From NCBI GenBank assembly GCA_964187785.1, contig OZ076409.1, forward strand, positions 78,928,001-78,992,000: 64,000 nucleotides of DNA, in the 5' to 3' direction. Below the pieces are notes generated by a model, which was not told the origin of the DNA, did no database searches, and saw nothing but the letters and a program-made list of their open reading frames with translations. Shown piece after piece: positions 11,740-50,198 of this stretch. Numbering within the stretch: the stretch's first letter is position 1; every line of letters begins with the position of its first letter. Source of the stretch: Amphiscolops sp. MND2022. Taxonomy: Eukaryota. Both the position numbers and the translations under genes were made by a program.

Positions 11740-12030
11740 AGATCAAACACAGTGTGTTGCGGTAAAGAATCAGCTGTCAGGTGTACCGGAGGGATCTATT
11801 CGAGGCCTGATCTTGTTCATGGTGTATGTAAATGATTTTCCAGTCGCATGTAATGAAATTACGCCTTTTTTGTTTGCCGATTTACAAATTGTGCTTATGT
11901 TCGTCCTAAACATGAGGGTTTGAGGCTCCAAGAAGAAATTGAGCATTTACAATCGCGAATGGCAACAAGATAATATGAGTGTCAAAGTCGGAAAAACGGA
12001 GTCCGTACATTTCCTTAACAAATGTTAGTA
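11740..12030 (+). pseudogene. LINE RT fragment, left flank of the large Gypsy element
   Basis: SGVPEGSIRGLILFMVYVNDFPVACNEITPFLFAD matches GVPQGS..GP.LF..YVND...FADD. Confidence 0.8.
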
Positions 12031-12294
12031 TGTAACGTCCACCAGTAAAGTACCAAAATTTCGTTCAAAAAGTCGAAAAGGTGCGAATCAAAATGGCCGA
12101 CCTAGCAGGTCGTTGAAATCGAAAAGGACGTACAGAAGAACAAAAAACCCGCCCAAGAAGCCCCAACCCACACGCCCCCGACCCAGGAGAGGAAGAGAAG
12201 AGACGCCCCACCATGAATAGACACAGAAAAACCCGGAATTGTGTCATCTCACCCAGTATTTGCAGGTTCCAAATGAGGAAATGATCCAGAATCC
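12031..12294 (+). repeat. Truncated 5' LTR of element A
   Basis: 264 bp matching 29884-30147 with 2 differences. The rest of the LTR and the PBS are deleted. Confidence 0.9.
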
Positions 12295-15227
12295 TTGTAC
12301 TAGTGTTTTTCCTGTGTTTCCTGCATGTTTCCGGGGTCTGGAATGAGAAATAACCGTGTGATTACAGAGTACCGTTTCCATACCGTTTCTGATTGTCGAA
12401 ATTAACCATCCGGCTTCACCGGATTGTGTTTTAAAGGGTCTTCTAGCCTTGTTTCAGCTTAATTGCAATGTATGGGGACCAGGAGGACGAGCACTGAAGG
12501 CCCCAGCTAGCTGACGACAGTAGGTGAACCCCTGCGTCATCGCACCTCCGTCACCCCCGTGATTGCAGTATACCCACGACAATCGGGTGAAATCCCTTAT
12601 TTTCTTAGTTTAGAAGCCCAAAAAGCATATTCCCAGGCCTATTCCCACTAAAATTAACTGGAAAGAATACCCTGAGGGTGTTTGAACCAGTTGATTGAAA
12701 ATTTGAGCGCGAAAACCTGAAAAATAATGTAAAATAAGGCTCAAATAGTGATTTTACAGATTTTGAAAGTCGAAATTTTGTAGAAAAGAGTACGGCCAGT
12801 GGGAATACTTGAAAAACGTTCCATCAGACCTGCCAGGTCAGGAACAGAAAAATTTGCTGGGCTAAATAGTTGAAACATCGAGAAATTTAGCGATTTTTGT
12901 CGAAAAAACATCAAATTTGGCCAAAAATACCAAATTTGGTGAGGGCGAAGCCTTGGGCGTTTGTTCCCAAGCTTTTAGATCAGCCCAAAAACATTATTCC
13001 CGAGCTTGGTAGTACAAAACACTACTGCCAAGACGATTTTTAGCATCCCCCAATAAAAATTGAAACTTTAACCCTTGAATTTCTTTGATATGCATAGACC
13101 TGAGTGGAGGACTCCATAGACCTGAGAGTTATAACATCAAAACTAATAATTGAAACAACCCCATTCCCCTAAATAAAGTTGTTACACCTTCTAACACTAC
13201 TATTAGAACCATTCGGAACGTCTGAGAACAAAGAAATAAAAATTTCTTGGTGAAAATACGTATTTTCAGTACTGTTCCGAGAGTGTCAAAGGTGCAACTT
13301 AAAGTTTATTTTAAGAGACCTTATTTGGAACCTGCCAGGTTTTGCTGGCCTATTTTCTGTTAGTACAGAGTATAACGTTGCAAACGCAGAAAACCGCGAG
13401 TGATTCCAACCAGTAGTTGCCGAGAAATAGCCAAAAACGTGTTATTTTTGTGACATTTTCGGAACACTGGAGTAGTGTACCCAAGATAGGTCGAAATCTC
13501 TCCTGGTAGGAGTAGCTCAGAACGGATAGCACCATCGTGTAGACCGCAAAAAGTTACGTTAGTGGTGTAATTTTCGTAGCGCTACCATTACTAGTGATCG
13601 AGAAATCTTAGCCGCAGTTTTGCTCAAAAATGATCCGAAAATGTCGAAAAAATTGAATTTTAGTTGAGCATAGTGCAATACCTTGCAGGTATCCCAGCAC
13701 TGAAATTCTTGCATTTTCGTACATACGGCACTAGATCCCGACGATTTGTGCATTTTGAGCAGCTTGCTACTGGCCAACTTAGAGAAATTGACAATTTTGT
13801 GAATTTTAACCCCTGAAAGTGAAATACAGGGTACATCATAGTTTTGTCGACTCGGATTGCAGAATATTGATCTGGGCACCCCGCTGACTTATTTTTCTGT
13901 TACGTGGGCATAATTCACGCTCGCATACAAAATTTCAGGTAGCCAGGAAGCCTAGAAAGCGAGTTTGACAGACTTGTGTGAATTTCACAACATTGTAGGA
14001 TTTTGCAATAACATTGTTGAGCGACCCCAAGTCACGTGCAAACAATTTTAGCGCAATCGGTGGTGATTCTCCCACGATTTGGCCACAGTAGTATACCGTG
14101 TTAAATTTTCAGGTCGCTACTAGCTCTAGAAGTGATTTTCACCTGTTCCAGGCGTGCGTATTGACGAAAAAGTCGCTGATTTTGGGAATTTTTGCAAAAA
14201 ATAGCATACCTTTCGTAGGTAAAGTTGCAAGTGAGGACTCAAACAACCCTAGTTCAGCACCACTCGCCCATAGCACATCCTGTTGAAGCAATTGGAATAG
14301 AGCTAGCTCAACCCTAACATCTTGGGTTCGTGGAAAGATTGTCAACGAGACGTAGAAGCGAAAAACACCAAAATCGTGTTTTCTCAGTTAACAGCCACCA
14401 GAGTCACCTAAGTGCGAACTGATTGTTGTAGCCACGCATACTTCGCATACGAAGCATAGTGTGAGAACCAGGACGCATTTAGGAGTTTCCCACGAGACTT
14501 AGACTTAGGACGCGCTGCGTCTCGCCAAAGTACATTAAGTAGTGTAGCACCAGAAAGTGTGAAGAACTGTGTTTCCATTGATCTTATAATGATCAGATTA
14601 GTAAAACTCTCTTGTTTGTTAGTCTCCTAGCACCTACTCACCCCCAAGGTCTATCCCCGAGTTCCCTATTTGCAGCAATCCTACCTGTGCTCTCCAATTG
14701 ACGGGCAGCGCGAGTAATAAAGAGTACGTTCAAAGAGTGCTGAGTGGTGATTTCTTGAATAAGTCTCCGAAAAACTCCGCTAGCGTACCAAAACCTTTTC
14801 TGATTATTCCAATCGCCTAGCCTGCGGCTGGATCGAGAGTAGCTTAGTGTGAATTAGCTTTAGCATCCTTAAGTAGGACATCAAAAAAAAAACTTTATTA
14901 ACTGACTTTTGTAGAATATCTATCTCCAGTTAGTGGGGAAGCAAACCTTTCTGTTTTGATTAGTGGTGATTAGCACCAGTGCATGTAATCTTGAGTTAGT
15001 GCATGTAATTTCGAGTTAGTATATGTAACCTTGAGTCTGAAGTTTGTAAAAGCCAGCTAATCTTGACTTAGAACCTAGAGGGCAGGCACAAGCTACAAGC
15101 TCAGAAACTTAATAGTAAAATAGTTTAGTTAAAACTCTTGAGGAAGTGACACCACAACTTCCAATTTAAATTGACTTCGATCTCATTTGTTGAGGGGAAG
15201 GAGTGAGCGAAGGACCAGAGAAAAGTT
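12295..15227 (+). other. ~2.9-kb non-coding leader of element A
   Basis: No convincing ORF. 12310-13950 is clearly homologous to the reverse complement of ~46130-47740. Confidence 0.75.
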
Positions 15228-48652: not shown

Positions 48653-48779
48653 TCAGAACAATTTTGCGTTTCCCCTGAGGAGAAGGCGGCCCTCCCAAAA
48701 AGGGCTTCCATTTGACCCAGCACGCTATATTCGAACTTTCGCCAAAATAGAAAAACACACTACGTCTGAATTATGACGT

Positions 48780-50198
48780 TGTATCCGAAGTATTGATGTT
48801 TCTACAAAAACACCTTCAAGCCCTAACGGGTCCCACCTTTGGGTCCCTTTGACACTCCTTTTCCGATTTGTTTTTCAGAAACCCTCCTTCTTGAATTTTT
48901 AAAAGAAATAAAGCGTCGTTTGGAAATACAGAGCCCCTTAGTGGTTTTTGGCACTATGCGACTTGTAGATTCGAACACAATGTTGGAAACAAAAATTTTG
49001 GGAATATCTTTCCCTCATGTTTTTGTTTTTCGTGTTTTTAATTGTGGAAAACCGTTTTCCAAGCCTTTAGGATGACATCGTTGGCTTTTGGCCTGGAGAG
49101 ACTGATGAGAGTTCTCTCAATACCTGCGGAAAAAACGTACGGTTTTGTCGGCATCGTGCGATGTTTTTTTTTTCAAAAACAATTTCACTTGGTAAAAAAA
49201 GTACCCGTTTTTTCTAAACTGTGTAACGGAACCCTATGGTTCAACGAGTTTCCAGAAAAAGTCGACCAAAAATTCGTTCAAATCTGACGTGGCAAATTGA
49301 GCATGTTTTGGCCAAAGTACCTGTCAAAAAGCTGTTCAGAAGACGAAGCTAGCCGCCCGCGGAGACGACCGAACGGGAACACGGAGTGAAGAAGCCCGAG
49401 CGCTTAGAAAACTCATAAATAGACTCTTTTTGAGGTGCTAACCCCGGTTTTTACCGATTTTCAGAGTTATGCTACCCAATGTAGTAAGAACCGGAAAAAT
49501 GCGTCTTTTCGCTTAGTTATCCTTGTTTTGTGCTTGGAGTCCCTGCGCCCCAGCTTGTAGCTGTGTGGTTGGCCATATTCGTGTGCCTGTTTTGATGTAT
49601 TTTTACTGCTTTTAGCTAGCTCGAGCGCTAATTTTCGCAGTTTAGATCTTATTCCCCATTTTAGATTTTATTCCCATGTCACCCTGGAATTGGAAATTTA
49701 CACTGTTTATCCTTTGTTTTGAAAGGCTGTCTAGACGGTGGTTGTGAAGAGAAAAATCATAGTGACCGTTATTCTCAGCAGTTACAGACTGGAACAGGCC
49801 GGAGAGCATCCTCAAAGACGGTTCCCCCTCCTCGGGACCGGCTATCCTCAGGAGGACAAAGTGAGCTGATATCATGGTGGTTTGTCCCGGACCATATCCA
49901 TGGTACCAGTTCCTCCACTTCAATGTTACGATACAATCGCTCAGCGCTTGCCGTTACACTGTTTTGGCTCGGAAAAACGTTTTGCAACTCTGGAGGGCCT
50001 TTTTTAGTTTTCCGGGACTATGAAAAATTGTTCGACCGAAAAAGTTGAACCTCTTTTTTTGATGTTTCCTGTTCAGAAAAGGCCATTTTCGAGTCAAAAT
50101 GGTAAGCTTCTGGGTCTTTTTTGGCATACAAAAATTAAAACGCTTGTCTCTTTTTGATCCCAGACCGGGGTGCCGGCTTGAGCCGTTCCCGGCTTGTT
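48780..50198 (-). repeat. Non-coding repeat ending ...CCGGCTTGTT, interrupted by a solo LTR
   Basis: Its end is the reverse complement of the AACAAGCCGG start seen at 38141 and 43401. The left boundary is uncertain. Confidence 0.4.
49222..49958 (+). mobile_element. Solo LTR (737 bp, TGTAAC...GTTACA)
   Basis: Terminal inverted repeat TGTAACGG/CCGTTACA. CTG duplicated on both flanks. Homologous to 38658-41610. Absolute orientation is tentative. Confidence 0.88.

Follow-up and report, generated by a model that had tools for sequence, protein, structure and literature searches.

Target-site duplications left by the Ty3 retrotransposon are 5 bp long and integrases of its class make duplications of 4–6 bp (PMC6673722), a range shared by retroviruses, among which prototype foamy virus combines a 4-bp stagger with 2-nt end-processing (PMC4422553, PMC6784120). 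Duplications of 3 bp have been called unique, among long terminal repeat (LTR) retrotransposons, to Troyka, in a paper whose supplements may hold exceptions (PMC12440569). The determinants of stagger in retroviral-type integrases are an open structural question, and a shorter stagger is thought to need sharper bending of the target (PMC4422553). Here, we describe four insertions with 3-bp duplications in a 64,000-nt window from Amphiscolops sp. MND2022 (assembly GCA_964187785.1, contig OZ076409.1, positions 78,928,001 to 78,992,000 of the forward strand; all coordinates below are those of the window). We consider it very probable that these insertions represent one Gypsy-type clade whose own integrase joins its ends to target strands 3 bases apart.

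An initial annotation of the window had reported exact 3-bp duplications at all four insertions, with no 4- or 5-bp match in their flanks, and both statements proved correct. The duplications are GTA (12028–12030 and 30610–30612) around TGTAAC...GTTACA at 12031–30609, AAT around TGTAAT...GTTACA at 38658–41610, TCA around TGTAAC...GTTACA at 44343–48652 and CTG around TGTAAC...GTTACA at 49222–49958. The same annotation spoke of ~730-bp elements; the TG...CA ends are indeed common to all four, but only 49222–49958 is a plain solo LTR (family B, 737 bp, plus strand; 49219–49961 with its duplication). The insertion at 12031–30609 is a single 18.6-kb family-A element on the plus strand, a broken copy in which a ~620-bp deletion (element nt ~264–885) has removed the primer-binding site and all but the first 264 bp of the 5′ LTR (12031–12294). 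Outside that deletion it is 98–99% identical to four 19.2-kb copies, and it retains a polypurine tract region (CCCGGGGAGGA, 29873–29883) and a complete 726-bp 3′ LTR (TGTAAC...GTTACA, 29884–30609). On the minus strand, 38658–41610 is a 722-bp solo LTR (38658–38950 and 41182–41610; 38655–41613 with AAT as read on the plus strand), into which a 2,226-bp TGTCA...TGACA element is nested (38951–41176), flanked by a 5-bp duplication of its own, TGCAA. Also on the minus strand, 44343–48652 is a non-coding two-LTR element of family C (4,310 bp; 44340–48655 with TCA as read on the plus strand), whose 5′ (48652–47916) and 3′ (45067–44343) LTRs are 94% identical. This 4.3-kb element matches family A at 80% across ~2.1 kb (LTR end plus leader), and family-A proteins probably supplied its mobility in trans, while the solo LTRs likely arose by LTR–LTR recombination.

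The 1.07-Gb genome from which the window comes was searched with three LTRs and three integrase-containing proteins and the ends of the matching copies were then extracted, yielding 84 insertions with both outer flanks (53 two-LTR copies and 31 solo LTRs). An exact 3-bp duplication was present at 76 of these 84 insertions, which extends the pattern of the window to the whole genome and supports the short-stagger integrase proposed in the initial annotation, the integrase's own role being the part that we infer. Two-LTR copies carried the duplication in 52 of 53 cases (A 13/13, 14.8-kb A forms 16/16, B 1/1, C 3/3, D 6/7, E/F 12/12 and G 1/1) and solo LTRs in 24 of 31; seven of the eight misses came from solo LTRs in families B and C, which are more diverged, and showed a single mismatch within the 3-mer. 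Flank matches of 4 bp occurred twice among the 84, each time in a homopolymer run, and matches of 5 or 6 bp never. When flanks were re-paired at random, 3-bp matches averaged 2.66 and reached at most 12 in 2,000 shuffles, compared with the 76 observed. The count leaves aside three family-B matches without an LTR end, LTR matches without an extracted partner LTR, two family-C neighbours identified as a local duplication and as a tandem (with one member in the solo count), and copies with ends outside the extracted stretches (14/30 A-type, 5/10 D and 1/10 E/F). The 19.2-kb map mispredicted the ends of the 30 integrase-positive A-type copies because the best integrase matches belong to 14.8-kb subfamilies; 16 of the 30 were recovered with both ends.

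The host does not impose the 3-bp length, since a control Gypsy family in the same genome makes 5-bp duplications (7/8 pairs and 5/5 solo LTRs, 12/13 overall). Within the window, the 5-bp duplications that the initial annotation had cited for comparison were likewise recovered, AATAT around 31141–36797 and TGCAA around the nested element at 38951–41176. The first of these belongs to the control, a decayed Gypsy element outside the clade (31136–36802 with its duplication, plus strand), with 204-bp LTRs and a primer site abutting the LTR.

For 49 insertions, the flanks were set against all DNA extracted in this analysis. For six of the 49, both flanks lay on one other locus; in four of these both matches reach the junction, and in all four they overlap by exactly 3 bases, with flanking identities of 60/60 bases at one clean empty site and 58/60 at another. 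A copy within a tandem array supplies a fifth empty unit with a single 3-mer. The flank at 48653–49221, used as an empty-site query, returned only partial repeats (67–80% identity). Across the 76 sites, target composition is A/T-rich (86% each at position −3, at the middle base and at position +3), with mirror symmetry about the middle base at r 0.82, the next best of 13 axes reaching 0.41. Palindromy of this kind has been taken to indicate that the integrase complex is symmetric (PMC4422553), and prototype foamy virus provides a mechanistic model for the clade, with such a complex, a palindromic target preference and asymmetric end-processing (PMC4422553, PMC6784120).

Members of the clade are Gypsy-type LTR retrotransposons of 15–19 kb (coding copies 14.8–19.2 kb) with LTRs of 720–790 bp that begin with TGTAAC or TGTAGC and end with GTTACA. 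Their layout is a single Gag–protease–reverse transcriptase–RNase H–integrase (Gag-PR-RT-RH-IN) frame with a predicted TARG1-like macrodomain and an optional orphan open reading frame, ORF2. Full copies of family A measure 19.2 kb and its 14.8-kb subfamilies lack ORF2; sister families at 67% integrase identity range from 15.8 to 19.2 kb. In every long copy mapped, the integrase gene is flanked by clade LTRs. Many copies retain uninterrupted frames of 3,000–3,300 aa, those of ~3,000 and 3,116 aa being 14.8-kb forms, and mismatches between a copy's two LTRs number 1–5 in eight pairs and none in three; these intact frames and near-identical LTR pairs show that activity was very recent. After subtraction of tRNA genes, the primer site complementary to the lysine transfer RNA (tRNA-Lys) has up to ~560 exact matches in the genome, by which several hundred clade copies would lie outside the default limits of LTR finders. 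LTRharvest defaults comprise a minimum duplication of 4 bp, a maximum LTR distance of 15 kb and a 60-nt search vicinity (PMC2253517). The suggestion that LTR finders would miss these elements should thus hold for the 19-kb copies, which the distance limit would drop, but shorter copies would more probably be mis-bounded than lost, unless the TG..CA motif were also required.

Coding frames in the window copy at 12031–30609 are broken, yet the plan of the element can be followed along the plus strand. The gag region is a 709-aa open stretch (15207–17336) upstream of the zinc knuckle and protease, which has no Pfam match in this copy; a distant relative weakly matches PNMA (E 1e-4). A CX2CX4HX4C zinc knuckle, the aspartyl protease and the first half of the RT occupy 17812–20016, after which the frame breaks, and the second half of the RT (with YIDD) and RNase H follow at 19809–21425 (RVT_1 E 4e-20, RT_RNaseH_2 E 3e-26). 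The integrase (21353–23068) has an HHCC zinc finger, a D-D-E core, WRGPH as a GPY/F-type motif and the two-residue loop insertion and SDNA motif typical of the clade, with Ty3 as its best solved relative (E 7e-28). A C-terminal extension of Pol (open stretch 23069–24874) is predicted to carry a TARG1/C6orf130-like macrodomain at 23831–24166, and ORF2 lies in three pieces at 25065–29392. Elsewhere in the clade the knuckle recurs in A3, E and F and is unmatched in D, and RNase H stands directly behind the RT, in contrast to the tether and second RNase H of retroviruses and Odin, with its D-E-D-D motifs in A3 and D and three of the four matched in E.

Among solved proteins, yeast Ty3 (PDB 7q5b and 4ol8) is closest in sequence to the clade in RT-RH and in integrase alike. 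The likeness to Ty3/Gypsy elements (Metaviridae) extends to domain order, an RNase H next to the RT, an HHCC–DDE integrase with a GPY/F-type motif, paired TG...CA LTRs, a tRNA primer site and a purine tract. Unlike Ty3, the clade adds a primer gap of 15–16 nt, the predicted macrodomain and the orphan ORF2. In the structural features tested it conforms to Gypsy, but it departs from the 4–6-bp duplication, which is a usual trait and no taxonomic criterion.

In a tree of the RT-RH region, built from the collected elements and free of reference sequences from named Gypsy clades, BEL, Troyka or Odin, the 3-bp families sampled, five in number, form one branch (support 99); its sister is a branch of proteins not found in this genome. 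Proteins of the sister branch (e.g., P0061 and P0063) share 48–52% integrase identity with the clade, and the best match to that branch in this genome reaches 48%, with no close copy. The GPY/F motif reads WRGPH in families A, D, E, F and G, where it aligns to the Ty3 motif, and WRGPF in the sister branch. In the integrase of all five 3-bp families, two residues are inserted ahead of core helix 1 (PCxH[D/E][D/E]YDA, compared with PCxxxxA) and a Gly-to-Ala change gives SDNA where others have SDNG. By our reading of the alignment, this alanine lies one residue before the position matched to Ala188 of the foamy-virus integrase, which contacts a target base (PMC4422553). Both traits co-occur in 44 of the collected proteins and neither is present in 42; from sequence comparison, the loop insertion and the Gly-to-Ala change are candidate causes of the short stagger. 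No sister-branch copies with LTR pairs were found among metagenome loci, which were short or unpaired, or among viral contigs. Of two relatives from outside this genome, a 7.9-kb metagenome contig (L198) takes a position basal to both branches, without the loop insertion, and P0173 falls inside the 3-bp branch at 77% RT-RH identity.

The primer site of the clade is set back from the LTR. From the CA of the 5′ LTR to the 18-nt primer site there are 15 or 16 nt in 45/45 matches (34 Lys sites at 16 nt; six Arg sites at 15 and five at 16), and this spacer keeps its length across families as its sequence varies. The sites are exact complements of the 3′ ends of the host tRNA-Lys(TTT) and tRNA-Arg(TCG), apart from the single site known in family B, which has one difference. 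In the family-C element of the window, a 16-nt spacer (47915–47900, minus strand) is followed by the site itself (47899–47882), which is complementary to host tRNA-Lys(TTT) plus CCA. The control Gypsy family has its primer site abutting the LTR, and in fly and mouse sets the distance is 0–5 nt, a range that the offset limit of the tool may cap (PMC2790888). At the other end of the element, 2–4 bases separate a GGGGAG tract from the TG of the 3′ LTR (53 contexts). The integrated end of every tabulated insertion is precisely CA, and nothing of the spacer remains there.

Under retroviral rules (PMC6784120, PMC4422553, PMC6673722), tRNA priming beyond the LTR would yield a linear complementary DNA (cDNA) with ~15–16 extra bases at its right end and 2–4 at its left. 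The integrase would probably clip both ends back to CA and join them in concert to target strands 3 bases apart, and host gap repair would then copy those 3 bases into the duplication. Bacterial insertion sequences of the IS3 family, which are DNA transposons that move without reverse transcription, have integrase-like DDE enzymes and TG...CA ends and often leave 3-bp duplications, so that an integrase-like fold can support a 3-bp stagger.

Several points weigh against this account. One family-D two-LTR copy has no duplication, and the sample consists of the copies with the best scores, most of them young. The empty sites belong to paralogous repeats and do not represent orthologous empty alleles; two further candidates, at which matches end 2–5 bp short at 71–85% identity, extrapolate to overlaps of 4 and 7, and one empty site has a second match that extrapolates to 2. 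The split in integrase signature corresponds to a single branch point, so the residues are not thereby tied to the stagger. The long overhang, for its part, is deduced from the position of the primer site.

The alternative that survives best leaves the 3-bp stagger in place and assigns the removal of the 15–16-nt stretch to a host nuclease or to an RT/RNase H step. Retroviral integrases clip 2, at times 3, nucleotides (PMC6784120), far fewer than are required here, which lends this version some force. An integrated end that is exactly CA nonetheless fits sequence-specific cleavage after CA, and the conservation of spacer length over a varying sequence also favours the integrase; we regard removal by another activity as a serious possibility, although the less probable course.

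It is much harder to retain an ordinary 4–5-bp stagger by supposing that the host, in repairing the gaps, shortens them to 3 bp. The proposed 15–16-nt 5′ flap might be repaired differently from the usual 2-nt case, but the duplication has a uniform length (52/53 pairs), no base has been lost at the empty sites and another Gypsy family in the same genome retains its 5 bp. Trimming would, moreover, have to be symmetric, when a long flap is predicted at one end only, and we judge this explanation very unlikely.

Still less likely, in our view, is that the elements are divergent Troyka (Kuafuorterviruses). The premise that LTR integrases make 4–6-bp duplications holds as the usual range, but Troyka was already known for 3 bp, and the two resemble each other as LTR retrotransposons in PR-RT-RH-IN order with 3-bp duplications and non-autonomous derivatives (PMC12440569). 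Set against published descriptions, as far as their accessible text goes and with no Troyka sequences in the comparison, the clade differs in every other hallmark compared: Troyka ends are 5′-CG...CG-3′ (CGCCA...TGGCG) rather than TG...CA, its LTRs span 100–400 bp compared with 720–790 bp, its internal part is 1.6–7.7 kb compared with a total of 15–19 kb, and its knuckle is CX2CX8-10HX4C compared with CX2CX4HX4C (PMC12440569). Its RT reads I/V/LADD where the clade has YIDD, and its integrase is described without the GPY/F motif to which WRGPH corresponds (PMC11673190, PMC12440569). These differences, together with Ty3 as the best solved relative, argue against a Troyka identity.

The initial annotation had itself raised the prospect that the outermost T and A are part of the target, which would make the true duplication 5 bp and the LTRs G...C. 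Because sites of 5 bp and of 3 bp have the same axis of symmetry, symmetry by itself does not discriminate between the two. The bases just outside the duplication, however, are far from fixed (A at −1 in 28% and T at +1 in 39% of 76 sites), which places the terminal T and A within the element; TG and CA are found at the inner LTR boundaries as well, beside the purine tract and the spacer, and the empty paralogous sites carry the 3-mer once, beside unrelated neighbours. We give this possibility almost no credence. That the ~730-bp pieces are miniature DNA transposons of the PIF/Harbinger or CACTA type, groups that typically combine short inverted repeats at their termini with 3-bp duplications, is equally hard to credit when the same sequences form direct-repeat pairs around gag-pol with a primer site and purine tract, and when the duplication flanks the LTR pair rather than the individual repeats.

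The preferred account, a Gypsy-type clade with a 3-bp stagger of its own, is best read as a Gypsy variant that has converged on the Troyka duplication length. Within the literature searched (titles and the starts of abstracts, Repbase and most subscription journals lying outside it), no TG...CA Gypsy element with 3-bp duplications or with a 15–16-nt primer gap was found, and the accessible text of the acoel genome paper (PMC9911081) holds no passage on Gypsy elements or target sites. We tentatively suggest, as a proposition that falls a little short of an even chance, that the clade represents a second, independent origin of 3-bp integration, arising inside Gypsy and combining a remodelled target face, a 3-bp stagger and 15–16-nt clipping in giant, young elements that encode a macrodomain. 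A TG...CA Gypsy clade at 3 bp breaks the Troyka-only rule that was used as a classifier in 2025 (PMC12440569). A young 3-bp clade with two diagnostic integrase changes, alongside a sister branch that lacks them, makes the question of what sets the stagger testable, and, from a gap of 15–16 nt between LTR and primer site, ends would be expected to be processed by far more than the customary 2 nt.

The predicted macrodomain matches TARG1 by fold (Z 11.6, root-mean-square deviation 2.8, 109 residues aligned at 14% identity) in a model with a mean pLDDT (predicted local distance difference test) of 45 overall and 70–85 in the domain itself, and at the sequence level TARG1 is matched by a relative, P0054 (E 4e-24). 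ORF2 encodes ~1,440–1,530 aa in families A, E, F and G, with 28–29% identity between families, and is absent from the 14.8-kb A forms and from family D. It has no Pfam match, its homologue P0266 has no Atlas match and its fold model (pLDDT 34) gave no fold match. An envelope-bearing, errantivirus-like identity was considered and rejected, as ORF2 does not show the expected signal peptide, furin site and transmembrane anchor: in three copies there is no RxK/RR site, two of the three have no hydrophobic N-terminus and there is one weak proline-rich hydrophobic peak (1.6–1.95). A GDSL/SGNH identity, suggested by P0261, was also unsupported (E 0.56). In P0261 itself, a sister-branch Pol, residues 1328–1469 give a weak GDSL-lipase-like match (E 9e-7) that lies under the family cut-off.

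Throughout the clade and the sister branch, RNase H and integrase are separated by an insertion of 250–530 aa that belongs to no known family (window ~20780–21500; P0006 603–859; P0121 1853–2385); Pfam detected no second RNase H in this stretch. The C-terminus of P0048 contains two integrase cores, probably through read-through of a nested insertion. Between primer site and gag runs a ~3-kb non-coding leader (12295–15206; element nt 727–3800 in full copies), in which no long open reading frame or internal repeat was found and which is partly kept (80%) in the non-autonomous family C. The tRNA genes that correspond to the primer sites occur in very large tandem arrays, with 664 matches genome-wide at a ~193-bp period for tRNA-Lys(TTT) and 256 matches at a ~174-bp period for tRNA-Arg(TCG); arrays were seen at loci L191 and L325 (G000 contigs C7 and C9).

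The nested element at 38951–41176 contains an internal 89-bp tandem repeat and may be a solo LTR of unusual length. The 85 bp at its end reappear between tandem family-B LTRs at L019/L028. There and at L014/L022 (G000 contig C6), family-B LTRs form short tandem arrays with a spacing of ~1.2–1.4 kb and a purine tract ahead of each, and these may be derivatives resembling terminal-repeat retrotransposons in miniature (TRIM) or satellites.

Towards the right end of the window, 51900–63100 is a decayed Polinton/Maverick-like region. Fragments at 54124, 57077 and 60657–63097, which we take from their motifs to be a packaging ATPase, a pVII-like protein and a protein-primed DNA polymerase, respectively, have no Pfam match, and an integrase core in the same region (55615–56325) matches Pfam rve (E 1e-6). 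Towards the left end, 4715–9848 is a decayed Gypsy element with no clear target duplication, 129-bp LTRs that are 97% identical and a primer site that abuts the LTR.

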